Origin: Eledone cirrhosa
Taxonomy: Eukaryota
Direction of reading: 5' to 3'
Assembly (NCBI GenBank): GCA_964016885.1
Contig: OZ024742.1
Span: forward strand, 263,500,001 to 263,564,000
DNA length: 64,000 nt
The notes under the pieces were generated by a model that saw only the letters and a list, made by a program, of their open reading frames with translations, was not told the origin of the DNA and did no database searches. The first letter of the stretch is position 1. Each line of letters opens with the position of its first letter. This document shows positions 748 to 27,668 of this stretch, one piece after another. The translations under genes and the position numbers were made by a program.

Positions 748-753
748 AAAAAA

Positions 754-1098
754 GGAAAAGAATGACTTCACTTATAGTGTTAAAAAATGTTTGATTTAGT
801 TTTATAATATTATATTATGAGTTGGTAGATCCAGTAAGTTCTTTGTTAACTTCGGTGGGAATAATTTTAGAGATTCCTGGTTAACTTGGGTTGGAGAACT
901 TTCTCGCATTCGTCTGTCTGTGGCGATTGTCAAACTCAGACGAATGCGAGAAAGTTCTCCAACCCAAGTTAACCAGGAATCTCTAAAATTCTTCCCACCG
1001 AAGTTAACAAAGAACTTACTGGATCTACCAACTCATAATATAATATTATAAAACTAAATCAAACATTTTTAACACTACAAGTGAAGTAATTCTTTTCC
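754..1098. mobile_element. Fold-back element, ~163-bp arms, 20-nt loop, flanked by (TA)n
   Basis: 754-916 versus 937-1098 are inverted with a few mismatches; no intact hammerhead core found. Confidence 0.85.
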
Positions 1099-1233
1099 AT
1101 TTTTTAAAATATACCTAACTGTACCAAGGATCTCACACATTTTCTAATATATATATATATATAAACAATTAAGTTAAACGAAACGAAATTTAATTTCGTT
1201 TCGTTATTTGTTTTTATATATATATATATATAC

Positions 1234-1910: not shown

Positions 1911-2348
1911 ATATATATAACTAGTTGTTAGTTATACATATGTATATATAAACCTTCTGGTGAATGGGGTGTTGGATTAACGGTCGTAATGTCATATGTT
2001 AGATTCTTGGACTAGGTTGCGCGTTGTGTTCTTGAACAAAACATTTCGTTTTACGTTGCTCCAGTTCATTCAGCTGAAAGTGAGTAGCAGTGGTAGTTAG
2101 GAGGTGAACCCTGCAATGAACTGGCGTCCTATATAATGGCCAGCCTTGTGCTCTTAGTCATTTATCGCAAATAAAATCTGGATAAGCACCGTCATTGTGA
2201 GCCTCCAGGATTTGGACAGACTGTACACAAACTTTAGGGCGGTTTGTGATTCGTATTAGCGACCTGATACAGTTTCTTCTGATTAAAAAAGAGACCTTTT
2301 CTCCCACTTAAGTCACAGACATGCATACTATTACTGCTACTGCTGCTG

Positions 2349-2408
<60 letters not shown>

Positions 2409-3128
2409 TTGTAGTGCAACGCGTGAGAGTGGCGGATGCTGGGATATGAGAATGGGAAAAGGATGCCTGAGGTGTGTGTGTTTGTGTGTGTATTGTGTGT
2501 ATTGGTGCATGTATATGCGCATGCGCATGTACATGTGCGTGTACATGTGCGTGTGTACATGTTTGTGTACATGTGCATGTATGTGTGCATTTGTGCTTGT
2601 GTATTTCAGTGCATTTATGTGTGTGTATGCACGTGTGAGTGAGTGCATCTATGTGCGTGTGAACATGCATGTGTGTGTAAAAATGTGTGTGTGAGTACAT
2701 GTATGTGCACGAGCGTGTTTGTGTGTACGTGTATGTGCTGTGCCTATATGTTCATGTGTGTGTTCATATATGTACGTGTGTGCAAGTGTGTGTATATGTG
2801 CATATGTATAAGTGGGCATGTATCTGTGTATATGTGTGTGTATGTATCTGTGCATACGTGTGTGTGTATGCGTGTGTATGTATACTAGAACAATCGTGCC
2901 GAGAGGGTGTAGAAATCGTGTAAAGAAAGCTGTGTATAATTAAATAAATTGAGAATTTACCTATTGGCCTTCTGTTAGATCTGGTGAGAAATCCTGAGGA
3001 GATGATTTTATCTTTGTATACACATACACATATATATACACATACATACAGATATGTATATGTATGTATATATATAAATGTATATATATATATATCTGTG
3101 TACATCCACATGCATATAAATATGTATA

Positions 3129-3240
<112 letters not shown>

Positions 3241-3290
3241 TATATATTGCTATACTTTGGGAGGGTCTTGCTGCGAATATATATATAGGA

Positions 3291-3321
<31 letters not shown>

Positions 3322-3994
3322 TGTATGTATGTATGTATGTATGTATGTATGTATGTATGTATGTATGTATGTGTATGTGTGTATGTATGTATGAATGTGT
3401 GTGTTTGTGTGTGTGTGTGTGTGTGCGTTTGTTTTTCTAAATGTGTATTAAAAACGCGAGAAAGAAAGATAGGGAGAGAGAATATAAAAAAAGAGAGGTT
3501 ATTTAGTATGGAAGAATTACGGAAATAAATAGCACATGACATGTAGTAGACCAATGAAGATTCCTTCCTAGAATGCTCTGCGAAAGCTCTATTGAATTTA
3601 GCTCGATTGTTACCATAGTGACAAAGTTTGAACTGGTGACTGTGCACTAGGACGACTATAGTATATTTCATCAAATGAAAGTTGTAAATGTTATTATGAT
3701 ATTGATTTTGGATCGATTTGCCTCATACTGTTTTTATATACCCTATCAATCTGTAAGTATCTTTTCTTGAATCTATCTATCTATTTTATATACTTTCTCT
3801 CTCAATCTCTTTATATGTCTACAAGTATATTCCTGCGATTTCCTCATTTTCTAAACGCCAATCTGAATCTTTGATGGTCAATGTTTGTGTATGAGTGCGG
3901 ACGTAAATATGCAGTTATATGTATATGGTAAGTGTATATGTATAAATGTATGTATCTACGCAGTTCCATAAAATCACGAGAAACAAATACTCAC

Positions 3995-6900
3995 AATCTT
4001 TGCCGATGGTTCCCTGCCCTCATCTTTCACGCTAGAATTTCTATTAAGCATGCACTTCTCATCATGGGGTTTATTCTTTTCTTCAACATTGTTTATCGGC
4101 ACCATCTTTGTTTCCTTTTCGCTATTTTGAAACGATTCCCCATCAATACGTTTAGATGCCTGTGACAATACTTCGGGATGTGTGATAATCGTATCAACAA
4201 TATTTTCTTCATTTTTACTATTCTGGGTTTCTATAGACTCGATATTTTGTTCTGTTTCTTGTATCTTATTCAATGTATCACTTTCTTTATTGGAATTTTG
4301 AACTATAGCTTTTTTCTTCTGTTTTTGTTCGCTGTTATCTTTTTGAGTCAAAACCTTTATGAAACTTTGCATTTCTTCATCTTCAGGACTCTGGATATTT
4401 GAGAATAGCCAAGGTTTCAGCTGCTCCTTCATGCCGAGATTTCTTGTCTTCTTTGGTTTATCTAAAACTGGCTCGACTTTCGGTTTTTCAGAATTCAAAG
4501 AAGAGCCGTTCGCGGAAGTTCTTAAATCTCTTCGTCTCGGATCCTTTCGAACGGTCTTCTCAGGCGTTTGGTCCTTTTTACTATCTTCAGCCTTTCTGAT
4601 AGTTTCGTCGGCTTTCAAATCAATTATGGATTTCTGTTTATACTCAGATTTGCTGTCTTGCTCAACTTTTCTCTGGTCCGCTATGTTCTGTTGGAACGGT
4701 AACCTTCCATACTCTTCAACCTCCTTCTTTTTAACAGAATTGTTATTGATATTTTCTTTCGAAGAATCCAAATGTTTGGTGGTATGAGAGAACTTCTCTT
4801 CTGTTGGCTCCTGTTGTTTTGGAATTACACTGGTGTTTTCTTTTGAAGGTTCCAGAACTTTAGGGGTTTCCCTGTTCTTTTCTTTATTTGTTTCTGGAAT
4901 GTTGGAGGTTTCTTTGATGTTTTCCTTGGTTGTTTGCGAAAGTTTCGTGTTTTCACTAATATTTTCTGTTGTTTCCGAAAGTTTGAAGGTTTCTCTGATC
5001 GGTTCTTTCGAAGGTGCCGGTATTTTGGAGGATTCGCAAATATTTTCTTCTGTTGGTTCTGGAATTTTGGATTTCTCACAAATCTGATCTTGAGATGTTT
5101 TACGAAGTTTGAAGCTATCCAAATTCTTTTCAATACTCGGTTCCGTAAGCGCGACAGTATCGCTAACTTTCCTTGGTTCCGTAAGTGCGACAGTATCGCT
5201 AACTTTCCTTGGTTCCGGAAGTGCGACAGTATCGCTAACTTTCCTTGGTTCCGGAAGTGCGACAGTATCGCTAACTTTACTCGGTTCTGGAAGTGTGACT
5301 TTCGTTGGTTCCTGATATTTGGATACCGCACATATTTTTTCTGTCGCTGGTTCTGATGTGTCTGATGACTTTTTCCGAGGTTTGGTCTCTTTTTGCCTTG
5401 ACTTGCGACTCCTGCCTTTATCTAGAAGAAGCAGACTACCCCATTTCTCCATCACCGTCTCAACATTATCATCTTTATATTCTTCTTTACTTTTGGCACA
5501 TGGTTTTGGAAGCAAACATTTATCAGGTTTTATATCGATTGATTTATTTTCCTCATAAATGGATCCCTCAACCTCAATTTCGATGTTTAATGACGGTTCT
5601 TTTTTACATTCTTCAACGAGAGTATTCGGTGGTGGAGTGACAACATCATTACTGGTGGTTTCCAAATTACATGCTTGAGACTCCTCTTCTATATCAACAG
5701 TTTCTGGCAAGTTCTGTTCTTCATCTAGTTCCCTTATAGGTGATAGGCCTGTCATCAGAATTCTACGAATTTCCATTTCTACTTGTTTCCTCGACCTTTT
5801 TGTATTTTCTAAATTGTTGGTTGTCTCTCTGGCATTTGTAAAGTCATTATTGAACTCTTCTTGGTCAGGAGGTATAGAAAACGTGTCTATCTCTTTCTGG
5901 TACCACGAAGATGTCTCTTGTGTATCTCTATTGATGTCATGGGATATAGTGCTAGCTTCAAACTTTTCCACTGTGTCAACAGAAGACATACTGTCCACTT
6001 TATGGTATTCTCCTGGATAGATGTGTGTTAAAGAATCATTATAACTTATAGTAGACATGTCAGAATCCTTGTCTTTCTGAGATATATTTTTAATGTCACT
6101 AAATTTTGTGTCCGTCTTTTCACAGGTGCGTGTCACACCTACATCATCATTTATTCGGTTGTAGTGTGTGCCCCTTTCAGGAGTTACCGGTGGAATGTCC
6201 TCGTATGGAGACTTACCGATCAAGCTGTCTGTTGGGACCCTATCACAAACATCCTTGTCTTTCTGTGTTCGCCATACTTCAAGCTCTTCTTCTTGACGAA
6301 GCCTCATATTACGGAATTGTTGTAACATTTTCCTAGTACGGGCAATAAGCCTATCTACATCATCTTCATCGTCATCACATTCGCCAGTATTACTACTTGA
6401 CTCTATACTGGTATCTTCGTTTCTTTCTTCACTAGTGGATTTCTCTGACATATCCATGGTGTCAGAATCAAATCTGTCACTTTTAGAATACTGACAGGAC
6501 AATTCTGTTGAATCTGACTTTACCATATCATCATTAGTATCCTTAACTGACGACATGGACTTGTAGTCACTAATATCCCCCTTGAAAGCATCCGGACTTG
6601 GTTCTGTCGATATGCTATCTATATGGGAAATTGTGCCATTAGATATTTCATACTCATTTTGTGTTTCTAAATTTATCCCACCACTAATGTCAGATGACGA
6701 ATGTTCGATGATAATAGCATTTGGTTCTTCTTCAGTTTTATCTATAAAGGTTTCTTTACATACACTTTCGGACGACACAGTCCCACAGTCATTAATTTCA
6801 TTATAATACATAGAGTGCCACAAATTAGTCTCTGCATCCTCAATCAGAACTTCGGTCTCAGTAGCACTGACACTTGAAACGTAATTCTCTTCAGAAACAT

Positions 6901-9900
6901 TGTCTACTTCGTCAAATTTATAATCCAAAGTATATTCAATGCTTGCTTCAGAAGTATCCAACAAAATCTCATCCTGTGTTCCGTACTCGTCTGCATCGAC
7001 TGACAATTCTGATTGTTTATCATCGATGTAAAACACAACATTTACATCGTTATCGTTTTCTTCCTCTACAGCATTGTCTAATTCCGTAGATATAGTGAAG
7101 AAAAATTCTCCCGATTGCACAGATTCGCCTTGAATATCAATATAATTAGATTCTTCTGGTCCATCTTTATTATCAATGTAATTTGATTGCGTGGATTCAT
7201 TTTTAATATCGATATCATTTGAGACACTCTCAATATCTTCGTTTGCATCCAGGAAAACATCGATATCATCAGTCTCCTTATTCTCATCTGAATGGGAAAC
7301 AGGCAGATGAACAGCAACATCGTTGTGAAGATCTTCCTGAGGAGATACATGAGTGATAGTTTCGTAAGGATCTTTAAATATCACATTTGAGCTCTCTTTA
7401 TCATGGGTCTCTTTATCAACTGATGCAGATAGACTTAAAGAACTAGTTATATCAGTAGAATTTGGAAGATCTTTAATTAGTCCTGAGGCTTCAGCAGAGT
7501 TTGCCATATTAGAAAATTTATCATGCAGCACTTCATTTTCGGATACGAAAACCTCGATATTGGGAGATGTTTTTAAATCAATATCTTCGTTCATTGTAGA
7601 TGATTGTTTGTTTTTCAGGACTGCACTTTCTAATTCAACATTATCAAGAGTCGGCAAGGTTAGTGGAGCATCTGGTTTATTCTCTACTTTCCTCTTTGTT
7701 ACATCAGTCAAAATCTCTTTCGTCTTTAGGGAACTTATAACTGTAGATATAACGTCGTCACTAAGTTTACGTTCTTGTAATGTTTGCTTAATGTTATGAA
7801 TGATATCCTGCAAAACAGCTGCGTTATCGGTGGGTGGCTGAGTGTCAATATCTGAGACGAATTTGTTAGTTTCATCTTTTGATGATACCTTTTGACCGTT
7901 ATCAATCTTTTCAACCGTATCTAAATGCGTCTCCTCATCAGTTTTCTGGTCATCTGTTAACACCTGGTGCCCCCTCGGTGTATCCGAGAACGCTGCATCA
8001 GAACCCAGTGAATCTGACGTTTCAACAGCGTTATTAATATCTGGACATGGCTTAAACTCTGTCCTTGTAAGATCATCTGGGGCCTGGTTAGAAGACTTGT
8101 GTGTTGCCACATCCATGTTCAATTCCAAAGGCACGTCATTGCTTTCCTGCAAATTAGTTTCTCTCAAGGAAATTTGGTCATTAGCATGGAGATCAGAATT
8201 TCTTACAATGGACAGATTGTCCTCAGCAATTCCCGGTAAAGGCTTACCAAGCAATACTGTGCTCTCTTCAGTTTTTTGTTCAGTGCCAATTTCTGCATAT
8301 TGTGCTTTGTTATTTCGAATATCTTCAATGACACTAGTCTGTTCAAATGACATGTCATCTAATGTGGCGGACATAGCTTCTTTAGCAGTTAACTTTTCAA
8401 TGGCCTTCTTGTTATTTAAATCATTGTTCAAACCGGTTCTTTCCGTTGATAGAGTTTTTGCCGATGGAGTCTCGGTGTAGTTAAGTGTGTCGTCTATATT
8501 TCGGCCACTAGCAAAGTTTATGATATTTTCCTCACTTCCACCATCTGACTCCAAATGATGAACAAAACCTTTGTCTTTTTCGGAAGCTTTATCGACGGAT
8601 TTCTCAGACGAAAGAGATTTGCTCGATTTGTCACCCGAATGCGCTACGATTTCATCACTGTCAACATCATCCTCGTCATCTTCGACTTCATCATCTTCAG
8701 CATTATCTTCCTCTTCATCAGCATCCATAAATTGATCAAAGATGAATGCTTTATCGAGAGAAGCTTTAGGAGAGTCTTCATCCGTTTCTTCACTATCAGT
8801 GCCGACAATGTTTTCTGGCAAACCAATATTCCAGCCGTCAATTTTGATTGGCTTGACTTCATTATTGATTTCTGGGAGTTTAGTTTCAGCATCCTTATTA
8901 TCATTTACCTGAGCTACCCTAGTGTTCTGAACATTATCGTTAACAACATGTTTCTCATTATCATTTACCTGGACAAACTCAGTGTTCTGATCAACATCGC
9001 TAGCAACATTATCATTTACCTGGGTTAACTTCTGAACATCATCGTTAGCAACATGTTTTTTAGACGAATTTACATCATCTAATGGCTCTTTTTCTTTTGT
9101 CGATACATTCTCTTTTTTAGCGATCATTGGTTGCTGTGGTACGTCTTTGTTGATGATGGAATTTTGATCTTCACATTCATCAGTCTCTTTAGAGAGTACT
9201 GGAACTGAATGTGAATTAGATTCACTGTGGTCTTCTTCAACCTGGCTGGATTTTAAATTTTTATCGCAAGATTCTTCTGAGATAACATCGATGCTATTCA
9301 CTTCTAGTTTATTGTTACTTTCAGGTAACTTCTCGCAATCATCTAGCTCGACATGATCCCTAATAGACTCAATTGATTTTACTCCAGTGGTTTCCACCGA
9401 AGTCTCAGTATCTGATGTTTCGGCGTTATCACCATCTTCTACATCATCATATTGACCTGATTCTGTTGGTTTCAAATCTTCTGGTTTTTCAAGGACTGAA
9501 CCATCTACAGAGGTTTGCTCCCTAATTAGTTTTGAGGAACTTTCGCAAGTCTTTGAAAGCTCTTCTAAATTGTTGTCAGATTTCTCTAAACTAACACAAT
9601 GATTACATTCGGCTTTTACATCTTGTTTAGAAACATCAGTTGCATTTTCCGGAGTATCTAGGATTTCTTGTTTCTCGTTTAAGAATTCTTTCGAATCAAT
9701 CTCTTTTTTTCGATCGACTTCAGATGAAACAATCTTTAGTTCTTTAACATTGTCGTCTGATCCAGTTATCTCTTCTGAATATTTTACATCAATGTTATCC
9801 TTTTCGATAGTCGCGTGTTTGTCACCAGTCTCAGAGATTTCTGTCTTTTCTATATCGATAGCCTTTTCATCACATGTGTCGATTATTTTCGGCTCACACT

Positions 9901-12900
9901 TTTCGCTTACTTCTTCCTTGCATTTATCGCTTACTTTCTCATCAGTTTTACCAATTTCAACAGTTTCTTCTAATTGGGCTACCTCAACTTCAGCATTTTT
10001 AGTTTTGTTATTTTCGTCTTCTGTAATTATCGAAGAAGTTTCAGAAACATTTTTATCTTTGGTTTCAACACCAACACTTTCAATGATAGATTTGGATTCA
10101 TCTTTAGATGCTTTGTTGTCCTTCTTCTCAACCGGTGGACTCTTTTTCACGCTATCCTTGGCTGGCAACAAACCATATCTCCGTTTCATAGAATCGAAGT
10201 CAATTCCAGGAGCATTGGCGGCGCCAAATTTCTTCTGAAAATTCCCTAAATTGCCAAGTTTTTTCGGCGCCGGTTTACTAGTAAGACTGCTTCTCCTTTT
10301 AGTATCGACCTTCACCTCCTCTTGCAAAAAAGTCCCACTTAGTCTCCGTTTCATGGCGTCAACAGCACTCTCTTTCGGCTTCTTCCGCTCCTCTTCCAGC
10401 ATGTCCGATATTCTCTTTAGCCGCTCTTTAGTCTTTTCCTCGGCAGTTAATTCTTCTTTAACTTCTGGTTTCTTCTCTTCCACCACTGGAACCTCCTTCG
10501 TTTCTATAGGAGCTATAGTGAACGCATAGGAATTCTCCCCTTCCGCATCAGCCGCTTCGCTGATTGTAAAGGAATTCTGTTCTTCCCCATCAGCTACTTC
10601 GCTGATTGTAAAAGTAAAATTGTTGGAGTTCTCACTACTTTCTTCCACTATATTGTCATCATTATTTGTTGTTTTAATGTCCCCATCTGTAGTTGTTTTA
10701 AGAATTGTCTCTGAACTATCCGTTTCTGCAGACACGGTTTCACCCTCGGTAATATCACTACTGATGACAAATGTAAAACTTTCTGAATCATCACATTCTT
10801 CGTTATCAATACTTGTAGAGATAACGAATGAACAAGATACCTCCTCATTTTCTTGCACATCTTCCGTGCTCACTTCAGTCACACTACTGATATTTGCTAC
10901 AGTGGTTTTTGGCAAAGGCACTGGAGGTTTCTGGGTTTTCTTTAAATTGATTTCGGTACCCATCTCTGAAGATAGTTTGCTCATTCGTGTCTTCAGATCC
11001 ATTTCTTCTTCATCATCTTCCGATTGTAATTTCGTCTTGTTTTTTGTTGTTTTAGGTGGTGGAATTGGTGCTGATTTCTTTAGAGTTACCTGGGTACCCA
11101 TCTCGTTAGACAATTTGTTTAAGCGGCTTTTTAAATCCATTGGTTGTTCATCGGAATCGTCTGAATTGTCACTAACACACTGAACCACGTTAATAGTTAC
11201 AGAGTTGTTGTCGCCTTCATTCGAATTATTTTCCATCGTATGAATAGAATTATCCCCTTTTGTCACCTTCGGTTCTGGAGCTGGAGTGCTTTTCTTTAAA
11301 TTGATTTCAACTCCCATTTCTGCCGACAGCATACTCATTCTTCTTTTTAGATCCATTGGTGCTTCATCAGGTTCTTCAGTGAGAGAAGTTTTTGATTCAA
11401 TTACGTCATTCTTATTTTCTTGTTTCATTTCTACACTTTCACTTAAACCCTTCTCTACATTATGATGGTCGTCTACAACAACCGGTGCTTCAGGTGCTTC
11501 ACCTGTCATATCAAATTCTTCATCTTTTGTCGCAGTTTTCGGTGGTGGAATTGGAGGTGGGGTAGTTTTCTTTTTCTTAAAATTAAGTTTGAAACCCATT
11601 TCTGCTGGCAACATGCTCAATCTACTTTTGATATCTTTTATTTCTTCAGAATCATTATTTTCACTTTCAGAATTAGTTTGTTCTGTTAAACTTTCTGCAT
11701 CACTAACTTTGGACTTTGGAGGCAACTTTGGTGGTTTCTTTTTAAAATTTAGTTTTGCACCCATTTCTGGTGGCAACATGTTAAGCCTGCTTGAAAGATC
11801 TATGAACGGTTCTGGTTCGGGTTCGTCAGTTTCAAATGATTCTTTTGCTGTTTTAGCCGTTTTACTGCCAGTCCTTGGTAAAGGTACTGGTGGCTTAATC
11901 TTATTTTCCACTGAGCTTTGTTTATTTTCCGTAGTATCATTCATTGATTCAGTGTCTATTGAATCCGTTATATCTTCAGATAATTCTTCTGGTTCCTTGT
12001 TAGAATCCCTTCGCTCTGACTTTAAGCTTCTGGGTAAAGGAACCGGTGGTTTTCTTTTAATCTCATATTCAAGATTGTTTTCAGATGATACAGATGTTAC
12101 GTCAGATTCTGTGTCAAGATCAGAGATCACCACTTCAAGTTTTATATCTTCCTCATTTTCATGACAATTTGATTCTGGTGACGACAAACCCTCATCTATA
12201 ACAACCGTCACTGTATTTTCAATGCAACTATCTTCTAAATTATCAGTCTCAGAAATAACCGATGACGCTTTGACCTCCGCTTCCTCCTCACTAATGGTAA
12301 TAAATTCTGCTGAATCTTCAATTTTACTTTTGAGATCTAAGGACATTTCTTCACTGGATGTACTTTTGCAATCTTCCTCTTTGTATACCTTTTCGTCGTC
12401 ATCTACAATATTTCTGTCATCTGATTGAACTTCTTGATCAGAAAATGAAAATGTTTCTTCTAAATCCTCATCAAGAATAATGTTTGAGGAACTTTCGGTG
12501 GAATCCAATTCCTTAGATGTCGATTCACTGTCACTTATATCACTGTTTGATTCCTTTTCAGACTTAGAAGCTTCTGAACTACTTCCACGATCTGTCGATT
12601 CCCCTCTTGTGACCTTGTCTTCATCTTCAGGCAGTTGTGACATTTCATCAGCAATTATATCTTTCACTTCATCAACTAAAGTCTGCTGCTTTAGTTCACC
12701 AAATTCCTCTTTGGAAGATACTACATATTCTTTCTTATCTTCCAATGTTGAATGCTGACTGTCTTCTTCCAAATATGTATAATTTTTAACGTTTTCGTTG
12801 TTCTTGTCAACACGTTCAACCTTCGAGACTTTAGAATTATTATTTTCTGATAAAATATCTGTTGTTTCTAGTTCATTGGTGCCTCCCGCCACCTCTGTAG

Positions 12901-15900
12901 AAAGATTATCGCCATCGTAATTACCACCGTCTTCAATTGTAGTCATACATTCTTCACTCTTCTCAAGCATTTCAGCTTCTTTACTAGAAGAAAAGCCAAA
13001 CATTCTCTTTAGGGCATCAACAGCATAAAGAACACTACTTTTGGGAGGTGTGAGTTGAGTCTTCTCCTCTTCTTTGCTGCCTTCAGTCGTCACATGAAGC
13101 ACGTCTTCTCCAGTTGAATCAGATGGCATGCTGTTTACGTGTGTTGACTCAGCAGCCTCATCTTTAGTGTCCTCTCTAAAACTCATTGAAATATTGGAAG
13201 AAATTTCATTCGAATCATTACCAATGGATTGTTCTAATTTTCCATCGTTGTTTAGATTGGTGTTTTCACAAACTGCTTTCTTTAACAATTCTTCGGATAT
13301 ATTCTCTGTGGGAACGGTAATTTCAGGCTCTCTATCTGAAGCTAACAAAACAATTTCTCTGCTGTTTTCGACTTTCTCAGGAAAACCAATTTCCTTAACA
13401 TCATCCTCTATGTTTGTAGTTATCTTATGTTTTGTTGGTTTTTCATAGCTTATTTTCTCATTTCCGCTAGAAGCACTAGTATCTGTTAACGACGTATCTT
13501 CACAGCTTTCACATTGAGGAGAAATATGTTTGTTTTGTTCAGAGTTCAGGATATTTGTTGATTCTGAGGAATTTACAGTCTCTACAATTTCATTAGATTG
13601 AAGTTCAGTTTCATTGATTATTGTTGTTGTTGTAGCTGCTGCTACTGTTGTTGGTGTAGTTGTTATTTCTTTATCAATGCTTGTGACATCATTACCTTCT
13701 TCCTTTTTCTGCTTTGGCAGAGTTGCCTCAACAGCATCTGAAGAAGTGGTGTCTCTCTGTGATAACTTCATTTCTATATCGTCACTTTGTTCCATTGAGC
13801 TGTCATTTTCCGAAGTTGATGCTACGGAAGCATCCGGAAACGAACTGCTTTCCGTTTCTGTTACTTGTTCTATATCCATATCCTTAGTGACAGCCGCAGT
13901 AACAGCTGTGTCCAAACACGGACCTCTCGAGTCCTTCATTGATCGAACGTCAAGAGAAGATGCCACCGCTTCCTGGGTGTCAACTAAACTTTCTTTAGGC
14001 GTGAGATTGTCGTTCTGTTCATGTAATTTAGCAGGGTGGTCAGTCGGGCCTTCACGCGGTGATATATCTACACTGTCGTAAAACTCTAGTTCCTCCTCCT
14101 CCTCCTCCCCTTCCCCAACCTGTTTTTGATGTGTTACCTTTAGTTCTTCCCCCTTATCCATAGTTATCTCTTTCTTTCTCTCTCCAATTACTTCTGATTC
14201 ATTTTCCAAACTTATATTTTCATTCATTTTACCATGCCCCCTATCTAGGTTTTCTTTAACTTTTTCCTCAATCTCATTCCCAGTCTTAAGTTTTTCTATT
14301 ACACCTGTCTGTCTCTCCTCCTTTATGTCAGCTATCGATACTCCTTCCGTTTTTTCTTCTCGCATTTCTTCCGCCTTCTCATCACGGACAATCAGCACTT
14401 CAGTTTTTTCTTCCTTTCTTAATTCTTCTTTTTCTTTAAAAACTTGCTCTTTTCCCGATTTTTCTCCTTTTCCTTTTTTCTCCTTTCTTTTAACCGCAGA
14501 TATTTCTCCAATTTCTCTTGCTTTCATTTTCTTTTCTTTATTACCTTCGATGACTTCAGCATTTACCGAGTTTTTAGCTTTATCAGCCAAAACTCCTTCA
14601 GATTTGATTTCATTCTCTTTTTTATTCTTTTCTTCATCTCCATATTTTTCTTCAACGGCCGACGTTTCGTCAACGACCGACGTTTCTTCAACGGTCGACG
14701 TTTCTTCAACGGCCGACGTTTCTTCAACGGCTAACGTTTCTTCAACGACCGACGTTTCTTCAACGGCTAACGTTTCTTCAACGACCGACGTTTCTTCAAC
14801 GACCGACGTTTCTTCAACGGCTAACGTTTCTTCAATGGCCGACGTTTCTTGCTTCTTAGCTTTCTCTCCGCTTCTTTTTATAACAGGTATTCTTTCAATC
14901 TTTTCTTCTTTATTTTCTCTCTTCTTCTTTTCCTCAATAACAAAAACTTCTTCATTTTTTCTTTCCTTGATGCCCTTCTCCTTATTCCCTTCAATGGCCG
15001 GCGTTGTTTCTTCCCATTTATCTCTCTTCGTTTCATTCTCTCTATTTTCTCCAGAGACAGGAGTTTGTTCACGTATTTTAGATTCTTTCATCCTCACCAC
15101 CGACATATCTTCTAGTTTTCCTTCTCTGTTTTCGAGATTAATTCTGTCAACATTTTCTGCTCTTTCAATATTTCCTTCTTTCTTTTTTACATCAACAACG
15201 TTGTCAGTTGTTCCGGTTTCTTTCTTTTCGACCTTCGTTTCTTCCCTTTTATTATTTTCTGCTTCTTCCTTTCCTTCCTTTTTCATTTTCTCACTTAATT
15301 TCTTCTCTATCTTTTCGTGTTTTTCTTTCTCTTTCCTCTTTAACTTTTCTTGCTTTTCCTTCTCTTTCTTTTCTTTCTTTTCTTGCTTTTCTTTTTCTTT
15401 CTTTTCTTTTTTCTCTCGTTTCTCGTTTTCTTTAATTTCTTTCTTTTCTCTTTTTGCCTTTTCTTCTTTTTCTTTTTTCTCCTTTTTACCTTCAGTCATT
15501 ACTACATTACTATGTTCTTTATCCGTTCTGTCAGTTTCTACAATCAGTTTGGCATCGTTGTCTTTATTCTTTTTTAATTTATCACCAATTTCATTAGAAG
15601 TGCCATCTTTATCACATGTCGATGTTTCCTTGACAACCAACTGACAGCTTCTGGTCGTTTCCGATGATTCATTGCTATCTCTCTCTGTCAACTTCTCTTT
15701 ATGTCTAGATATTTCAATCTCCTCTGAACTCATTTGGTCTTTAACCGTTTCCTTAGCATTACCACAATTATTAAAATCTTTCACATTTGTCGGTGATAGC
15801 AAAGAACCGTTTGAGGCCTTATCAGGTGTTATTTTCGAAGCACCCATTCGTTGGTTGTTATCTAAGCAAACAGACATGTCTTTTTTGTTGATATTAAGTT

Positions 15901-18900
15901 CACCATCATCAGTAAGTTCTTTAGAATCTTTTTTCAATTTGCAGCCTAAATTTGCATCCTGTTCTTTGAACTGATTACCCTCGATTAATGTGTCTGAAAT
16001 AGATTTCTTTTGTGTTTGCTCAACTAAGGAACATTCATATTCATGTTTCTGTTGACTCTCTACAGATTCCAACAGAGTTTCTTCAAGATCGTGATAAAGC
16101 ACATGTTCAGGTTCTAGTGACATATCTGCAAGAACTTCTTGGACAATATCTACGGGTTCGGATAAAGCATTCACTAGATCATCAGGTAACGTATTCGCAA
16201 GTTTCACAAAGCTTTCAATTTCATTTACGGACGCAACATCAAGTGTTTCTATCGGAATGCCCTCTGATCTAGAATATTCCACAGTGGTGATCTCTGTGAT
16301 GTTTTCATTATGTTCTATGTCAACCAAATCCACCATATCCGTGCAATACTCTACTTTACAGCCATTTGAAAGGCTCAAACAATCGATCAAGTTTCTATCC
16401 AAGTCTTTGAAATGAGCTCTCTTCACGTCTGTAACAATTGTACTGACTTCTTCATATTGCAGAGATCCGGTAGATTCTGTGGAATATAGTTCTTCTGCAG
16501 GTTTTCTACATGTTTCTACAGTGACTTTAGTCTCATCAGAAATATCTCCCTTTCCTTCATCCACAGTATCTCTTTGTTCTGTTGGTGTACTACATGGTTC
16601 TTCAGTGACTTTAGTCTCATCAGAAATATCTCCCTTTCCTTCATCCACAGTATCTCTTTGTTCTGTTAGTGTACTACATGGTTCTACAGTGACTTTAGTC
16701 TCATCAGAAATATCTCCCTTTCCTTCATCCACAGTATCTCTTTGTTCTGTTGGTGTACTACATGTTTCTTTAGTGACTTTAGTCTCATCAGAAATATCTC
16801 CCTTTCCTTCATCCACAGTATCTCTTTGTTCTGTTGATGTACTACATGTTTCTACAGTGACTTTAGTCTCATCAGAAATATCTCCCTTTCCTTCATCCAC
16901 AGTATCTCTTTGTTCTGTTGGTGTACTACATGTTTCTTTAGTGACTTTAGTCTCATCAGAAATATCTCCCTTTCCTTCATCCACAGTATCTCTTTGTTCT
17001 GTTGGTGTACTACATGTTTCTTTAGTGACTTTAGTCTCATCAGAAATATCTCCCTTTCCTTCATCCACAGTATCTCTTTGTTCTGTTGGTGTACTACATG
17101 TTTCTTTAGTGACTTTAGTCTCATCAGAAATATCTCCCTTTCCTTCATCCACAGTATCTCTTTGTTCTGTTGATGTACTACATGTTCCTACAGTGACTTT
17201 AGTCTCATCAGAAATATCTCCCTTTCCTTCATCCACAGTATCTCTTTGTTCTGTTGGTGTACTACATGTTTCTACAGTGACTTTAGTCTCATCAGAAATA
17301 TCTCCCTTTCCTTCATCCACAGTATCTCTTTGTTCTGTTGGTGTACTACATGGTTCTTCAGTGACTTTAGTCTCATCAGAAATATCTCCCTTTCCTTCAT
17401 CCACAGTATCTCTTTGTTCTGTTGGTGTACTACATGTTTCTACAGTGACTTTAGTCTCATCAGAAATATCTCCCTTTCCTTCATCCACAGTATCTCTTTG
17501 TTCTGTTAGTGTACTACATGGTTCTTCAGTGACTTTAGTCTCATCAGAAATATCTCCCTTTCCTTCATCCACAGTATCTCTTTGTTCTGTTGGTGTACTA
17601 CATGTTTCTACAGTGACTTTAGTCTCATCAGAAATATCTCCCTTTCCTTCATCCACAGTATCTCTTTGTTCTGTTAGTGTACTACATGTTTCTTTAGTGA
17701 CTTTAGTCTCATCAGAAATATCTCCCTTTCCTTCATCCACAGTATCTCTTTGTTCTGTTAGTGTACTACATGGTTCTACAGTGACTTTAGTCTCATCAGA
17801 AATATCTCCCTTTCCTTCATCCACAGTATCTCTTTGTTCTGTTGGTGTACTACATGTTTCTACAGTGACTTTAGTCTCATCAGAAATATCTCCCGTTCCT
17901 TCATCCACAGTATCTCTTTGTTCTGTTGGTGTACTACATGTTTCTTTAGTGACTTTAGTCTCATCAGAAATATCTCCCTTTCCTTCATCCACAGTATCTC
18001 TTTGTTCTGTTAGTGTACTACAGGGTTCTTCAGTGACTTTAGTCTCATCAGAAATATCTCCCTTTCCTTCATCCACAGTATCTCTTTGTTCTGTTGGTGT
18101 ACTACATGTTTCTTTAGTGACTTTAGTCTCATCAGAAATATCTCCCTTTCCTTCATCCACAGTATCTGCTTTTTCTGTTAGTGTACTAAACTCTGTGTCA
18201 TCGGCAGTATGTATAACCTCCTTATCTATAATTTCTGTTAATTTTGTTAAACTATTGTTTGGCTCAATTACTGATTCTTTGGGTGTTTCTAACGTGTTAG
18301 CATCCAGAACATGTACAGATTCTAGGAGGATTCCTGACTCATTGTTTGTTTCAATGAACATTTCGGTTGATGGTTTGTAACAGACATCATCGGGACAAAT
18401 CGAGATCTCCCTCTCCTTAAAATCTTTCTCTACAACCTCTGTAGCTCTCGTCTGAATATCTTCCAGTAGGTCATTCAAAGGTGTCATGTCCTCCGCTAGA
18501 TCTCTGCATTGGAAGTTAACAGGGTCAATAAGAGTTTCTCCAGCATTTGTTTGTAAAATTTTATCAGGTTCAGTAGAAACATCAGCTACGTTCTTATAGA
18601 CAGTTTCTTCTGACATAATTCTATCTTCTATAGACTGAGTGTTTAGAACCTCTAATGATTCCGTTACACTCTCCACGGCATATTTACATAAATTTTCAAC
18701 AATTTGGGCTTCCTTATTTTCAGTTCGGACCTCCGATTCCGAGCCCTCATTCCCTTGTTCATTGTTCAGCTTGTCGATATTTGCCTCTACACAACTTTCT
18801 CTCTCTATATTCGAGAAGCCCCTGTTATTCTGCTCTTTTCCATTTAATTCTACATTCTTCATCTTTTTTGTTAATGAGCTGAAATCGACTTCTTCACTTT

Positions 18901-21900
18901 GCAACAAGCTATTTTCATATTCCTGTAACTTATTATTTATTGACTTTTCATCTTTGTCAGAGGCTATTTCGAATGAAGTTTCTTCTTCGTCCCTTATTTC
19001 AGCGACAGTCCCGTTTGACGTAGTGTCACACTCTGTTGCCTGATCAAGCTCTCTATCTTCTACATTAATGTTATTTTGCTTAATCTCCTGGCAAGATGTA
19101 TTTGCGAAATTTTCATTTTGTATTTTCGAAATCCCCCAGTTTTCTTTTAAATTGGAATCGGTTCCCGGTTTTTTTTCCTCGGTGTTATCATTGGCACTAT
19201 TTTGATTGTTGATGTTTAAGTTTTCGATTTCTGTCCCCTCCTCATTAATTTCTGGACGAGTAGGAGCGACGTCATTTTTGTTGTCTGCTATGTCATATAC
19301 TCGGTTGTCTGTTTTCTTTAAATTCGATTCCCATTGTTCCTCGCTCACCTTTTCTCTCACTCGACTTCCAGAACACGGCAAACTTTCTTTGCATTTGTCT
19401 TTGTTTTTATCTTCAATTGATCCGTTTCTTCTGCAAAGATATGAAGCTTCCTGGATTTCTGATATTTTTACCTCAGCCGTCATATTTCTGTTTCTCGACT
19501 TTTTAGAGTCTTCAGTTTTAAACGGCGTTGCTCCTTTCTCTGTTTTTATGAATGTCAATCCCTCGCTATCGATCTGTTTTTCTAAGGATTTCACATCATC
19601 TTTTGCTCCAGTTTCTTCATTTAAACTTTCGCCACATACAATATCTGATGAAGTAACATTTGATCTCTCAGTGGAAATGACATCACGATCCTTCTCCTTT
19701 GTAGATACAGAGTCTCTAGCATTTACTTTATTATTAGCATCACTGATTATTACAGAATTATCACCATTGTGTTTACTAGTTTTATTCTTTGACTTGTGTT
19801 TAGCTTTCTTCTCCTTGGATTTGCTTTTCGCATCTAAAACACTAACATTATCTTTTGTATCTTCAGAATACTTGTTGACATCAGGTTTCAAGTCGAACGA
19901 AACCCTTTTTTTTATAGTAACAGCTGCAGATCTTGAGAGCTTTGTTTTGCCAACACTACCAAATGACGACTCATCCGATGATGATGTGGTATCACATTTG
20001 GCCTTATCTCGACCTTTAATCTGATTTAACGAGCTATAATCAACGATGGCTTTGTTATCCTTATCACTCAACGCAATAGAATTATCTTCTTTCATGTCAT
20101 CCTTATTCATAATTTTATAATTATTTACAGACGGAGAAATCTCATTTGTTGTCTTTTTGATGTTATCATCTTTAACTGGTGGTGACTTAATTTTTTTATG
20201 GCAGGCGTTATCAAAAGTTCTGCTGCCGGCAGCAACTTTCTTTTCAACCACATTAGATTGACTAAGTAGATGAGATTCATCTTCTAAAGTATTATCTTTT
20301 CTATAGCATCCCTCGGTGTTTGTATCTAATTTACAGATAATTTTACTTTTAGAGTCGGTTAAATTATTGAAACCGTCACTCTCAGCAGATTCTGTTGTAC
20401 TGCTCCCAGCAGATCTTTCAATTGAAGCCTTAGTTGGAATATCAGCACCACTGAACGTAGAAGAGCTCTCCTCGCTGCTAAGGGTTTCATTGCTCCTCAA
20501 CTTTTTATTCACATTATTTTTCTTCTTATTTCTCTTCTGTTCCGATTTGCGATTCTGTTTCAGCTGGGATTTCTCTCCAATTTTCATGTCTTTGTCAAAT
20601 TTTGCTTTATTTTGTTCTGGGACGATCTCATCAGAATCTTCTTGCTTATCTGCCTTGACTCTTACATCTATTTCTTTTAGTTGATCGGAAACAAGATCGA
20701 TATCTACACGTTTTGAACTTTTACAATATTTTCTGATTATTTTGGGCTGGTTTGGCTCCTTGCATTTATTTTCTTTCTCTTCTCTGCTCTGAACAATTTC
20801 ACTTTTGCTCCGGGAAATCTCAATGGCGTTAATATTTTCGCTGTTATTGCTATTTTTGGCAGCTCTCGTTTTAGCTGAAATTCCATCACTGGAAGCTCCG
20901 AGATCATACTCACTAGACTTACCATTTTTGTTGTTGGAAACCTCCTCAGATGTTATCGAAGCATCACCTGAAATTTCAGTTCTTGCACTAAATATTTCAG
21001 ATCTACAATGTTTTAAATCATACTTGTTATCTAAATTTCTTTCACTTGCAGTAGTGTTTAATTTAACATTAATTTCCTCATCTGAACTAACTTTAATTGG
21101 GAGTTTGGGTATATCATCAGTTCTGTTAGCCGTGTCATTGTCAAAAATGTTATCATGAATGTCTCTTGAACCCATGAATTCTTTCTCACCTTGATCTCTG
21201 GCCGTAATGACAACGTTGGTTTTACGATTACTTTCAGTATGATTATCAAAGCTCTCTTTCTTTGCAACAACGTCTGAATCACTATGAAGACGATTCGTTC
21301 TGGTTATAGTCTTGTCAGCCTTGTTTGCAGCCTCTGCATCAGTCTTATCCTTAATGATACTTGTGATATCAATCTTAGAGTCCTCACTGGATATATTTTC
21401 GGAAACAAAACGAAGCTTGAAATCTGTATTGTCACCGTCTTTCATTTTATCTTCACTATGTGACTTAGGCCACTTTTCGTTATTCAAATCTACTTTGAAG
21501 TTATCTGTAACGTTCTTGTTCGTTTTAGTACTGTATTCATTGCTGGACTCAAGATTGCTGATCTTGCTATCGAATTGGTGTCTTATGAAGGAAGTGTTAT
21601 CAAACTCAGTTTCACTATTAGACTCACTGCTAGGGAGACTGTTGACATCAGGACTGCTGGACTCACCGCTGAGTTCTGCACAGCTGGATTCACTGGTGAC
21701 ATCTAGGCTGCATTCACTACTGAGTTCGGGGCTGGACTCAATGCTGCGATCTGTATTTGTATCATTGCTCGGCTCACTGTCAGACTTAACACTTAAGATA
21801 GTTTCAAGTTCCTTCTTGTCGATTATACTGGCTTGGGCGCTGGATTCAGAGTTGGATTCACTGTTAAGTTCAGGGCTAGATTCAATTTTGACTTCAGTGC

Positions 21901-24900
21901 TACACTCACTGCTGAGTTCAGTACTGGACTCACTGCTGAGTTCAGGACTAGACTCAGTGCTGTGCTTAGAGTTAATCTTTTTACTCAATTTATTGTCAAC
22001 ATCGCTATCGACCTCAGAGTGATCATGAAGCTCTTTTTTCAGTGGAGTATCAAGTTTACTACCGGTATGCCTAGTGGGTTCATTGTCAAAGATATCTTTT
22101 GACTCAATAAAGGAACTATGCTTTGTTTTAACATTCTCCTTTGCTAGTGTCACTTCTGTCCTTCTATCTAAGCTATTAGATACAGATGTAGCAGCATCTT
22201 TGTTGATATTCTGACCCACATTGCCTCCACTTGCAAGATTTAGCTTTTCACTAAGAAGTCGTAAAATCTCTTGCATGCTGACATAACCCAATGGTTGACC
22301 ACTCGCATCGTAGATCTGAGTCATTTCACTCACAGACTTAGCAGCTTTTTCCTCCTGGATTTGTTTCCCCTTTTCACGATCACCCTTCCTTCTACTTTCT
22401 TCCTTTTTATCTTCAGGCCTATCAAATTTCACTCCGACATTTTCGTTTCCTGTACGTTTTGTTTTCTTTGTATGTGAAAACTGGTTCTTGGTTACTTCTT
22501 CGTATGTACTACTACCAGCATGTTGTGTGTAAGAATCAGACTTTTCCTTTACAGACTTCTTCCTAGATCTTTCGCCTTTTTCACTTTTAGGTTGTTTTAA
22601 AGAATTGATCTTTTTATCGTCCTCTACTGTCTTTTTCAAATTCGATCGCTTTTCTGCCGATATTAAAGCTGTTTCAGAATCAATGATGGTCTTGGATTGG
22701 TCCTTATTGATATCTTTATATCGGTTCTGATCTGATTTAATCATTTTTTCCATCTTATTTTCGTCGAGAACCTTTGTTTTGTAGACATTCGATTTCTCAT
22801 GTCCGCAAATCTCTGCTTCTGCTTCAATTTGTGGAAAAGATAATATAGCATCTTTCCTGATATTATCTGTTGATTGATCCCTAGAGAATTGCTCACTGTG
22901 TATCTCAATATCACTATATTGTTGCTCATGTTTTACTGCATTGTTTCTCATAGCTGGAACATCTTTTATTGTGGTTGAGTCTTCCACCAAATGTCTTGCT
23001 TCTTTCTTTGGAATGTTCTCTTTGGTATATTTTGAAATATATTCGGTGGACTTTTCGGATGGTCTGATTTCTTTGTGTTTAGCACTCAGTAATCTTACAC
23101 CCATATCATCTTTATCTCTTTCCGGAGGTGGCTCTTCTGCACTATCTCTACCATGTTTATGCACGCAAAATCCTTTCCTATCTTCAGAAGAGATTTGCAT
23201 ATCTTCTGCTGTTTTCATGGGTTGCTTTACAGTTTTGATAATTTCTTTCTGGAATAATTCCGAAGAATTGGCAATATTACAAGAAGAAATAGTTTCAGTT
23301 GTTGTTGTTGTTATGGTACGAGAGCTTGACAAAACATTAGCTGGCATTGTATTTGAATTATTGATTTCACAGCTTTCTTTGTTTACATCTTCAACATCTT
23401 CCGATAGTTTTACTGATTTGCGTATTTGGTTCAGTCTATCTGGTAATTCTAGTGATGCGCTTTTGCCAGAACTGTTTCTATCGAAATTCATTTTATCACC
23501 CAAATTATTCGATGTTAACACAGCAATATCTGATCTTCTTTTTATTTCTTCGACATCATCGGTTTTTGTGAGAACTTGGCTGTAATCTGTTCTCTTGATC
23601 CATTCAGCACCACTTCCTGTCATGAAAGGAGTCTTGAATGCTTGAGTTACTCGTGTGGCTTGTTCAGGCAAATTGTGGAACTGCTCCGGTGAAACATTAC
23701 GTTTGCTGGAAAATATATTAGAAGTACTTGAAATAGAGTCTTCAGTGCGACGATTGGTTTTGATTTGGCTTAAGTGATCTGAAGATGTTGTAATCGACTT
23801 TTGTGTAGTTTCATATCTATTTTCCACACTACATTCTTCTTTTATTTGTTCATGGTTATCTGGAGCGAGTTCTATGCTGTCATAGAACTCTAAATCTGTG
23901 TTATCTCCATCTGAACTGGTTGTGGCTTTATCTGTAGCTTCTTCGATATCAAAAAACTCATTGTCATCATCATCGTCATCGTCGCCATCATCATTATCCT
24001 TATCATTATAATCATTGATAGTACTATATGGAAACACAGTTTTTAGTTTATCTTCTCTAATGTGAAGTTTCTCTTCGGTCATATTTCCATGCATCCCTTT
24101 AGCGTGCCCCGATAATTTCTCCTCATTTCTGGCTTCATATCGAACTTGCGGAACCTGAACTATAGCAGGCCTTGGCAGAATGATATCTTTGTTAGCCATC
24201 TCCTCTTTACTGATACGGCTATTACTGCCGACAGTTACCGTTTCTGACACGGGCCTTTGATGCAAAGAAATAGATTTTGGGGAAGGAGTCCTTTTGTTTT
24301 GTTGGTATAAGTAGTTGGATTCCAATTGACGACTGTTTGAGTGTAAATTCGTGTTAAACTTTTGGCTACAAGTTGTTTGCTTTACAGAGTTTTCTCCCGA
24401 GAAGGCACTCTCCCGAGAGCTTTCAATACCAAAGTGTTTCCCAAAAGGATAGTTCTGGTTATCATTCAACCTAGATGAGAGATCTTGTGTCATAGGATCT
24501 TTCGGTTTCCTTTCCAAAAAGTTTGAAATGGTTTTATGCGTCTGAGAATCTTTAACTCTGTCCGGTTCCGTATAAGACGGAATGTTATCGTTTAAATGTT
24601 CAGTTTTCAGATCTTCAAAGTCTTGTATATTTGAATCGTGCGTATGTCCTAGTGGTGACATTCCTACAATGCTACTTCCTACCACAACAACCGACCTGTT
24701 CTTTGTGGCTTTTGGTCCAGACAAGATTGGAAGAAACATTCTACCGTGTTTATCTTCTAGAGATTTCCGCTCTTGTAAACTTTCGTTGTATCTATCCTCA
24801 ACAACAGTGTTGTCTTTATGACTTTTGCTTGTAGATTGGAATTGAGAGGATGAACTTTTATTAGATCTACTTGGAAATGAAAAACCAAACAACCCACGAC

Positions 24901-26311
24901 TGCTTTTACCAGTATTCTTCGGTTTAGAACCAGAAATATCTTCTGTAATGTAAGATGTTTGATTAATATGTGTCTTTTGCGATGTTGTTGCAATTTCATC
25001 GTTTTTCTTAGAATGTAAGTTAATTCCCATGAACGGTAATGATATTCTGTTGGTCACTTTAGAGTCTTTGTTAATCTTTTCCGAGGTTAAGCTACGTCTC
25101 ATGTTATTTTCAGAAACATGTGCATCCATATCTGCCGAAATTGTGCGGCCGTGCATATTGTTTTCCACAAAGGCAGTTTCACTTCTGGAAGATATGCTTG
25201 GTTGTTGCGAATATGTTTTCCGTTGACTTTGAGAAGACGCCGGAGTAACATCACCGTCCGGTTTATCATAGGGAATAGCATTAGCAAAGTGTCCTATGGT
25301 ACTTTTCTTATCTTGAAAGCCCATACTTTTCACTCTGCGCACATTAACCTTCTGTCTATCATTTCCACAATTTGACAATGTTGATGTCGATATTATACTG
25401 ACTCTGTCTTCATTGGGGGCAGTTTGTGATAGGGTTGAGTTGCTTCCATAATTCCTTCTACTAATGCTGGATGTGTAAGAAAAATTACTCACACTATCGC
25501 GATCAAATTCGGAATCAGTGCTGCAGTAAGTCCTATTGCTTTCTTCGTCAGTTTGCCGGATGTCGTCCACACCACTGTCTCTGTCTCGTTTCTCACGTTT
25601 GTGAAACAAGGAATAAATACCTTTTTTGATTTTTTTACCCAAACTTTTGATATTTTTCTTTTTCTTTTTCTGATCGTCTGTATTAGAATCTTCATTGTTC
25701 TGTGAAGAAGCTGTGCTAAGCATAGAACTTTCCATGTCATCAATATGTCCGCTATCTGCAGCCGACCAAGAGCCCTCGTCACTACTGAGTGCATGTTCAT
25801 GCATACTGGCACGACTGTTACTTTGAGAACGAGGCAATCTAATGGCAAAAGGAGACCTTCGATAATCTGTGTTAATAATTGGTTTTTCAAATGTATTCCG
25901 ATTTTCCCCAGATACAGGAAAACTAGTTTCTTTAATCAAACTCTTGATTGTTTTCATGTCTGAATGTTTATGTACTCTGAACAATGGGCTATGATGTTCC
26001 GAATATGTGTCACTTTCCGTGACCTTACGTCGAGGTAACGTACCGAATATAGTTCCTCTCTGCTCGCTAGATTTCACTTCTTCTTGAAATCGCGATGATC
26101 TGTTGCCAAATATGCCACTCCTTATTTTCTGCCTATAATTAACTGGAGATTGTGGAGCTGGTATTTTACTCTCGTCTGTTTTATCCCTCTTCGTTCGTGG
26201 GAATGTTCCGATAAACGGTAATCTCATCACATCCCCTCTGTTATTCTCCATGCTAGCTGTTCGACTGACTTCGACACGACTAGTAGCTGCCCTACTCTCT
26301 GCCCTATCCAT
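3995..26311 (-). CDS. Giant coding exon (7439 codons) of an unidentified very large, acidic, mostly disordered protein; gene continues downstream
   Basis: Uninterrupted ORF 3974-26311. Polypyrimidine tract + CAG acceptor ends at 26389 (exon starts 26388). ATG at 26311 has an in-frame TAA two codons upstream and an aatATGG context. A GTGAGT donor at 3994 is phase 0 (..SAKI|VSICFS*), so the last 6 ORF codons are probably intronic. No globular domain recognised. Confidence 0.88.
5138..5300 (-). repeat. Coding 33-bp repeat (EPRKVSDTVAL) x ~4-5
   Basis: gcgacagtatcgctaactttccttggttccg units. Confidence 0.9.
14650..14850 (-). repeat. Coding 18-bp repeat (A/V-V-E-E-T-S/L) x ~11
   Basis: gacgtttcttcaacggcc-type units visible directly. 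Confidence 0.9.
16500..18190 (-). repeat. Coding minisatellite, 84 bp x ~20 (28-aa unit TVDEGKGDISDETKVT[KVE]E[TP]CST[PLS]TEQRD)
   Basis: Near-identical 84-bp units in frame within the giant exon; variation limited to a few positions. Confidence 0.95.
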
Positions 26312-27668
26312 ATTTTACCTTTATGATTTCCTGCCGTCACCTGTTTCCCGTGCCTTAAACTGACGACCAAAATGTCATAGTTCGTTGACTGAAGGAAAAA
26401 AAAAAACAAAAAACATTAATGTAGTTATTTTTGAAATGTGTTAGGAGGGGGAAGAGGTTAGATTTTTGTTTTTGTTTTCTATTATAATTATCAACGTTGT
26501 TATTTTAGTCTATATTTGTGGTTTATAACTGGGAAATGTTTGCTAAACGTTTTTTTGTGAAAGTTTTGATGTTATTGGCTGTAAAATTATCTTTTTATGT
26601 GTGTACTGAAATGTGAATTTTGAAAAGATTTCAATGAAATTATTCTACATATATTTTCAGTGTTCGTGGTTAAATATCTAGTTGAAAACTAGGAACTACT
26701 TGAAGAAGAAAAACTGATGTACTTGCAGTTCTGTTGATAATATTCTATGATTCATTTACATTGTTCAGCCATTCTATTGTGGCCATGCCGGGACACCGCC
26801 TTCAAATGTATAGGCGAGCATATTCACCCCAGTGCTTGACTGGTGTACTTATTTTATCGACCTCGGAAAAAATGAAAGGCAGTGTTGCCTTGATTAGGAA
26901 CGTAAAGGAACGCAACCCCTCCTTGCGCCATCAGGTCTTCGAATGACCCTTGAAATGCCACCACTTACACCACTACAATTGATTTTGGGTAAGTCTCATC
27001 TAGTGGTGTATCTACTGGTTGCCCATCCACTCTTTTAGAAGATGGTGTCTTGTAAAAATACCTAAATGAAAGTGTCAGGAAAGTCCCCTTGTATTCTCTC
27101 ACGAAAATTCCATGACAAACTCATATATTTAGAACCAAACACCACAAGGTCCGATGCTTTACCCATTCTGCCACCAACAAAATGACAAATAAGGGAGAGT
27201 CAAGCGTATTTCTTGATAATATATATAAGGTTGAAAGAGGTCTTCGACCGAAAGACATCGGTTGATAAATCATAGTGATTTATCAGAAGTTTATAAATAA
27301 CTATATTACCATGATTGTTCAACGAATGTGTGGAACAAAGCCACACAATACATTCGATTTACTTGTCACGTCGACTAAAATAGAACTGCTCCCACCAACT
27401 CCAATATAAAATATAAATTCCATTGACTTAGTCCCTTTTTTTCTCTAGTCTTAAAATATTTCTTTTATTTCTGCAAAATAAAACAAATATCGATTTATGT
27501 AATAGAATCCTATTGATAAGGATGGCGAGGGAGAATGACTCTCGCTGCTTGCACTCACACAGACATACAGACACACAAAGACATACAGACACACACAGAC
27601 ACATGCATTCTTTTAGCTTTCACATGATAGACTGCGATCATGTTGGGGATCCGTCTTCTACACCCCAC

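Follow-up and report, generated by a model that had tools for sequence, protein, structure and literature searches.

A giant coding exon in the octopod Eledone cirrhosa and its possible continuation into the PLK1 gene

A 22.4-kb exon on the minus strand

The window analysed here, a stretch of 64,000 nucleotides of Eledone cirrhosa DNA, carries on its minus strand an exon of 22.4 kb that is almost certainly real and coding (Table 1). The longest stop-free frame in the window reaches 7,446 codons on this strand, and the next longest has 654. Inside the exon, 77 nt of 5′ UTR are followed by an ATG at 26311 and by 22,317 nt, that is 7,439 codons, with 0 stops; the other two frames of the exon hold 400 and 1,107. 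The chance of such an open frame, estimated from base composition, is ~10^-250. An in-frame stop precedes the ATG, and the start codon lies inside the giant exon; a 7-codon upstream open frame (26355-26378, minus strand) is also found in the 5′ UTR part, before the main ATG. The initial annotation had described a single ~22.4-kb exon with an acceptor at 26389, the start inside, a phase-0 donor at 3994 and 7439 stop-free codons, and both the sequence and the contigs of run X4 agree with this description. Its statement that coding exons above 20 kb are exceptional holds against human exons: in the available part of PMC3467050, MUC16 exon 3, with >21,000 nt, is given as the longest internal exon in human, a length that the giant exon about equals, and titin's largest has >17,000 nt.

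Microsatellites cover 0.08% of the giant exon, against 12.0% of positions 1-3994 and 8.1% of positions 26389-64000, and when 464 kb of retrieved sequence were searched with blastn, the exon matched nothing outside itself, against a cover of 33% and 23% in the flanks. The exon had been reported as free of microsatellites and transposable elements, and to this extent it is, but in-frame tandem repeats are present inside it, chiefly the 84-bp array listed in Table 1 and 11 copies of an 18-bp unit (14647-14850). Outside the exon, a 45-bp tandem repeat at 52040-52847 (18 copies, 99% match) is open in all three plus-strand frames. No long non-repeat frame was recognised in the 90 kb upstream of the window.

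The sequence is present in four runs, X1-X4, all from one study and none recorded as RNA. In runs X1-X3, intron and exon are covered alike where they were aligned, and the contigs run straight on past 3995. Run X4, with 88 million letters of contigs, has no depth at 3450-3821 and 26593-26901, and its contigs lie on the exon at 3995-5180, 5249-14600 and 18250-26384 (1.2, 9.4 and 8.1 kb), without gaps or joints. We infer that X4 represents RNA, because of the lack of depth in the flanking introns, the ungapped exon contigs and a joint at 3995. Its cover of the exon was compared outside the tandem-repeat stretch at ~14.6-18.25 kb, which holds the 84-bp array; in the parts compared, X4 crosses the exon without the internal introns or the lack of expression that the initial annotation had named as contrary evidence. 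The X4 contig departs from the genome exactly at 3995 and resumes on an AG/GT-bounded exon of 69 nt, 5,538 nt downstream, and the phase-0 donor at 3994, one of three junctions named in the initial annotation, is used in this run. At the second of them, 26389, the contig is aligned to 26384, the tool skips 26385-26420, and the remaining 104 letters do not align to the intron; since these last letters are not placed on the intron, they support the acceptor with an uncertainty of a few bases, but the upstream 5′ UTR exon was not found. The third, an internal donor near 26318 proposed to skip the giant part, is unsupported: the motif is present, but the same X4 contig bridges it by 66 letters, unbranched. 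Contigs lose rare variants, and minor splicing at 26318 would not appear in them; use of this donor would remove the start codon at 26311. Window position 10140, a C in the window itself and in X1-X3, is a G in X4, a difference that may reflect an allele or editing.

Table 1. Features of the window and of the sequence beyond its left edge (negative positions: G000:C3 position minus 263500000)
Feature	Position	Strand	Basis
Polypyrimidine tract and acceptor AG (CAG ending at 26389)	26389..26420	-	sequence; X4 contig end
Giant exon, first coding exon, 22,394 nt	26388..3995	-	acceptor, ATG, donor; ortholog with same initial Met
Conserved basic, Ser-rich N-terminus (aa 1-300)	25412..26311	-	83-87% identity to O. 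bimaculoides
84-bp (28-aa) tandem repeat, 20 copies	16506..18188	-	absent from O. bimaculoides protein
Five motif copies: helix-like stretch, EMG, KK, Pro-rich PxxxPK	10892..11824	-	kept in O. bimaculoides
Most conserved block (aa 5301-5400)	10112..10411	-	92% identity to O. bimaculoides
Donor ATT/GTGAGT, phase 0, at 3994	3989..3994	-	used in run X4
Intron after giant exon, 5,538 nt in all; part inside window	1..3994	-	X4 joint
69-nt exon, phase-0 donor, no stop	-1544..-1612	-	joined to giant exon in X4
Predicted 81-nt exon, phase 0	-6829..-6909	-	codon score, splice signals
Predicted 195-nt exon, phase 0	-31038..-31232	-	codon score, splice signals
Second large exon, 6,375 nt, Pro-rich heptads	-42699..-49073	-	codon score, splice signals, Argonauta homology
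Five linker exons, 54, 63, 45, 66, 66 nt, phase 0	-50079 to -97536	-	splice signals; Argonauta match
Antisense G-patch gene	about -118570..-109645	+	Pfam G-patch E 1.9e-12
Ordinary PLK1 first coding exon, 33 codons	-119277..-119375	-	FLGK reading into GGFAK
PLK1 exon 2 to last exon	-124469..-139581	-	match rest of GAB1598412.1

The protein encoded by the giant exon

The 7,439 codons specify a product of 833 kDa and pI 4.7, with 12.9% E, 11.5% S, 10.3% K, 8.8% D and 8.5% T. A hydrophobic signal or membrane stretch is absent (highest 19-residue hydropathy, 0.95). Pfam searches of the giant exon in three pieces returned 0 families at E 0.1, and Ig, Fn3, spectrin and ankyrin domains were found in neither large exon; a second Pfam pass took in 14 pieces of the region with a limit of E 10, and here G-patch, in the antisense gene described below, alone passed its cut-off, and SARAH, fn2 and other weak matches, all below theirs, were rejected. 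The composition is typical of an N-terminal disordered spacer, a state that we predict for this protein.

Its sole relative among 4,442 candidates is a partial model from Octopus bimaculoides, of 5,744 aa and 57% identical, which begins at the same initial Met and ends inside the giant exon; relatives in other cephalopods, sought by protein comparison, thus include an ortholog of the giant exon here and, as described below, an Argonauta hians relative of the second large exon. For the most conserved block, no second genomic copy was found among the 5 candidates scored. The five-copy motif (aa 4836-5140), in which D, R, L, EMG, KK and prolines do not vary, presumably resembles WH2 plus SH3-binding sites; WH2 had no Pfam match at E up to 10 in any of the 5 repeats or in the joint region, and a PDB profile gave 2 matches, both at chance level. 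These Pfam and PDB profile searches found no domain or motif linking the arm to the cytoskeleton. When the last 840 codons were compared with longer proteins in search of homologs, none of 7,985 candidates scored. The first ESM Atlas matches (0.80 for CRBG1-like and TNKS1BP1, then 0.75 for CARMIL-C and DUF4592 clusters, and 0.83 for an unnamed match) lie below 0.9 and are leads only. The polo-docking motif S-[ST]-P occurs 18 times versus 5.9 expected, 6 versus 5.5 without the species-specific repeat, and 4 versus 5.2 in O. bimaculoides; outside that repeat, neither polo-docking nor PLK1 consensus motifs are enriched in the giant exon.

Among known systems, the giant ankyrins (AnkG 480 kDa, Drosophila Ank2-L/XL and UNC-44) offer a like composition in the available part of PMC5135030, which describes fast-evolving long exons, of 8.1 kb on average, with S+E at ~25%, S, E, T, D, K and P above 55%, and optional repeat arrays. 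The giant exon resembles them in being a single very long exon, in evolving fast, in carrying optional repeat arrays and in its bias (24.4% and 55.5%, respectively), but neither large exon encodes ankyrin repeats, ZU5-ZU5-UPA or a death domain, the start codon lies inside the exon, and its 22.4 kb compare with that 8.1-kb mean. By analogy, the shared bias makes it plausible that the giant exon works as a giant-ankyrin-like spacer without being an ankyrin. MUC16 exon 3 and other mucin exons are of similar length, as far as the available part of PMC3467050 goes, and the Argonauta model is named 'mucin-5AC-like'; in contrast to mucins, the product here has no signal peptide, membrane anchor or dominant PTS repeat and is mostly non-repetitive and charged.

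Downstream exons and the PLK1 locus

Downstream exons, which the initial annotation had expected, were predicted beyond the window's left edge by combining a codon score with splice signals along 125 kb, most of them being picked by eye from 165 candidates; the 54-nt linker exon was read directly from the sequence and not from that list. Besides the 69-nt exon joined in X4, they comprise exons of 81, 195 and 6,375 nt and five linker exons. The X4 contig extends 1,689 letters past the donor at 3995. In the best of 5 chains tried, made of 69, 81 and 195 nt plus the second large exon, these letters end at -44042, the onset of a low-complexity repeat and 22 nt short of where this assembly would place the break; a break there is plausible, because contigs can break at such repeats, and the arithmetic lends moderate support to one continuous chain. 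It is likely that the giant exon continues through such a chain into the second large exon, the links beyond the 69-nt exon being predicted, and homolog searches, within their length limits, found no protein containing both large exons. Summed, the exons before PLK1 would encode 9,777 residues, or, with 545 more, about 10,300. Within the second large exon, 1,029 nt from its start, there is a strong phase-0 donor motif (-43727, minus strand, L006), the use of which would skip the Pro-rich repeats. One intron of the giant gene contains a LINE-type element (about -12482 to -7277, plus strand, L002/L003) that looks intact, with a frame of 1,156 codons and, upstream of it, one of 341 codons.

The sole match of the second large exon among 7,977 candidates scored (P0003) is Argonauta hians GAB1598412.1, a 3,471-aa protein named mucin-5AC-like that ends in PLK1 (Pkinase E 3.9e-69, two POLO boxes). 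Identity is 39% and 43% in the non-repeat parts, and the acceptor of the second large exon coincides with the start of the homology. The repeat block consists of a Pro-rich heptad here and of a 14-residue acidic unit in Argonauta, with a VDS core in both; length rather than sequence thus seems to be kept. When the linker exons were compared in order with GAB1598412.1, four of the five beat all 300 shuffles and the 54-nt exon was matched or beaten in 25 of 300; the four had been chosen from splice signals before the Argonauta protein was known. Another 54-nt candidate exon, at -100839, had no match in this protein. Two linker exons (L007:2909-2971 and L010:877-942, minus strand) both start with KFEDA, kept in Argonauta, which suggests an old exon duplication. 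The last linker exon corresponds to residues 2905-2926 of GAB1598412.1, and with residue 2927 the kinase exon takes over; linker exons and kinase acceptor are all phase 0, and the last linker exon ends LI[QN]K in both species, in phase with GGFAK. The Argonauta model has no counterpart of PLK1's ordinary first exon, and its linker runs directly into PLK1 exon 2. A search of the 348-aa Argonauta linker stretch against 50%-cluster representatives gave 0 matches. GAB1598412.1 is one automated model, with one member; its own N-terminus looks spurious, and the giant exon is absent from it. According to the available part of PMC12682272, the Argonauta gene models were built with GINGER, a pipeline that combines ab initio prediction with RNA-seq and homology evidence.

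The local PLK1 exons encode a kinase domain with the catalytic Lys, HRD and DFG and two C-terminal polo boxes, the only folded domains found downstream, 128-143 kb beyond the giant-exon donor. The initial annotation had envisaged the N-terminal disordered spacer of a giant isoform, which it supposed to be cytoskeletal, muscle or neuronal, with its folded domains in downstream exons; composition and start codon fit such an N-terminal spacer, and for the folded domains those of PLK1 are the sole candidates, the linker-to-kinase junction appearing in the Argonauta model alone and in none of runs X1-X4. PLK1 is a mitotic (cell-division) kinase, compact at normally about 600 residues, and here it has a 33-codon first exon of its own, with two CCAAT boxes and a TTTGAA upstream, an arrangement that we take to be like that of G2/M promoters. 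Head-to-head with this exon, about 700 nt apart, lies the antisense G-patch gene, presumably PINX1-like, which probably shares a promoter region with PLK1. Of the two clear polo-box loci in the genome, that of PLK1 is much closer to GAB1598412.1 than the C2 locus. The latter, a kinase gene that we take to be PLK2/3-like (G000:C2:397733701-397807449, plus strand), has no recognised giant non-repeat frame in the 34 kb fetched upstream. A weak fifth POLO_box match lies on C4 (E 0.22).

A proposed giant PLK1 and its alternatives

We propose, as a reading whose chances are evenly balanced, that this locus encodes an octopod giant PLK1, in which the 22.4-kb exon is followed by small in-frame exons, the 6.4-kb exon and PLK1 exon 2, giving a predicted scaffold isoform of 10,300 residues with a disordered arm that would tether polo boxes and kinase to the cytoskeleton. 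For the continuation into PLK1 as the main, functional form, the balance is also about even. In this model, use of an upstream promoter would exchange the 33 codons that normally open PLK1 for an acidic spacer of about 9,780 residues; the downstream exons, with their intact kinase domain and pair of polo boxes, would be those of PLK1 itself. Spacer length may vary freely, and the short conserved motifs (the N-terminus, the five helix-plus-polyproline repeats and aa 5301-5400) would serve as binding sites for partners, for example actin or SH3 proteins. The first-exon swap would turn FLGK-GGFAK into LIQK-GGFAK (LINK in Argonauta), with loss of the first strand and the first glycine of the ATP loop. 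Judged against the consensus of the glycine-rich ATP loop, the sequence predicts a complete first strand and loop with the ordinary first exon (FLGK) and their absence in the giant form (LIQK/LINK), which would probably make the latter a weak or inactive kinase. It may act mainly as a phosphopeptide-binding scaffold, and PLK1's own promoter would continue to give the short, cell-cycle form.

The fuller picture is one that we put slightly short of even: a two-promoter PLK1 locus in octopods, the second product of which would be a Polo scaffold or pseudokinase of megadalton size, conserved and disordered over almost its whole length. Its 22-kb exon would stand before the kinase, on the far side of a nested antisense gene, and the product would be a titin-like giant with a Polo head. 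Giant muscle kinases of the titin, twitchin and obscurin type are megadalton chains with Pro/Glu/Val/Lys-rich repeats, Ig and Fn3 domains and a C-terminal kinase. The predicted chain resembles them in its size, in the Pro/Glu/Val/Lys-rich repeats of the second exon and, if the junction holds, in its C-terminal kinase, but it has no Ig or Fn3 arrays and its kinase belongs to the Polo family. If true, the polo boxes would have been redeployed for a structural role, probably in non-dividing cells. A literature search by title, in which few subscription journals were covered, found no giant PLK1 in cephalopods among the papers listed. Counting against the giant PLK1, the required 27-kb intron would contain the whole G-patch gene and PLK1's own promoter. 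The reliance of the kinase junction on a single automated model, the enrichment of polo-docking motifs in the species-specific repeat alone and the failure to find a cytoskeletal domain or motif in the arm also weigh against it.

The same arrangement, with an antisense gene before PLK1 and a complete first exon and promoter motifs in PLK1 itself, favours the alternative that survives best, which we regard as possible though rather doubtful. Here, the giant gene would encode a stand-alone disordered scaffold of ~9,800 residues, pure spacer with short binding motifs. The gene would close with a short last exon of its own, located from -97.5 to -109.6 kb and lying tail-to-tail to the G-patch gene, and the Argonauta model would be an annotation fusion or a minor read-through. 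A kinase fused in this way would lack its first strand, and the proposed junction, from an upstream internal exon to exon 2 of the next same-strand gene, follows the preferred pattern of read-through (transcription-induced) chimeras, penultimate exon to second exon, given in the available part of PMC5209911. One candidate for such a last exon, with an AG, five codons, a stop and two AATAAA, is found near -101570, in a stretch that has no other genomic match among those scored. It is weak, since AATAAA is common there, with 13 instances in 12 kb (-97 to -109 kb). Another candidate, at -98560, was rejected as part of a multi-copy element. Against a stand-alone gene also speak the LI[QN]K end of the last linker exon, in phase with GGFAK in both species, and the Argonauta model itself, since a model that is right on four tiny conserved exons probably had transcript or homology support. 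If the junction into PLK1 fails, the locus would still hold a very long, largely non-repetitive coding exon of an unannotated octopod protein, broken up by public gene models, which is worth annotating and of moderate interest.

It is unlikely that two separate upstream genes or transcripts are present, one ending soon after the 69-nt exon and the other joining the second large exon and the linkers to PLK1 as a 3,500-residue extension, as in Argonauta. The homology of GAB1598412.1 does begin at the second exon, the O. bimaculoides model, itself incomplete, ends before the giant exon does, and the first junction alone was directly seen; however, the 69-nt exon is free of stops and ends in a phase-0 donor, the acceptor of the second exon lies where that homology starts, and the 1,689-letter arithmetic fits a continuous chain. 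Finally, it is very improbable, and largely refuted, that the frame is open by accident or stays untranslated, or that internal introns interrupt the region: although the giant exon has no Pfam domain and the RNA-like contigs were compared outside the stretch with the 84-bp array, such a frame has a vanishing chance of arising, it is kept over the 5,744 aa of the O. bimaculoides model, and the X4 contigs lie on the exon unbroken.
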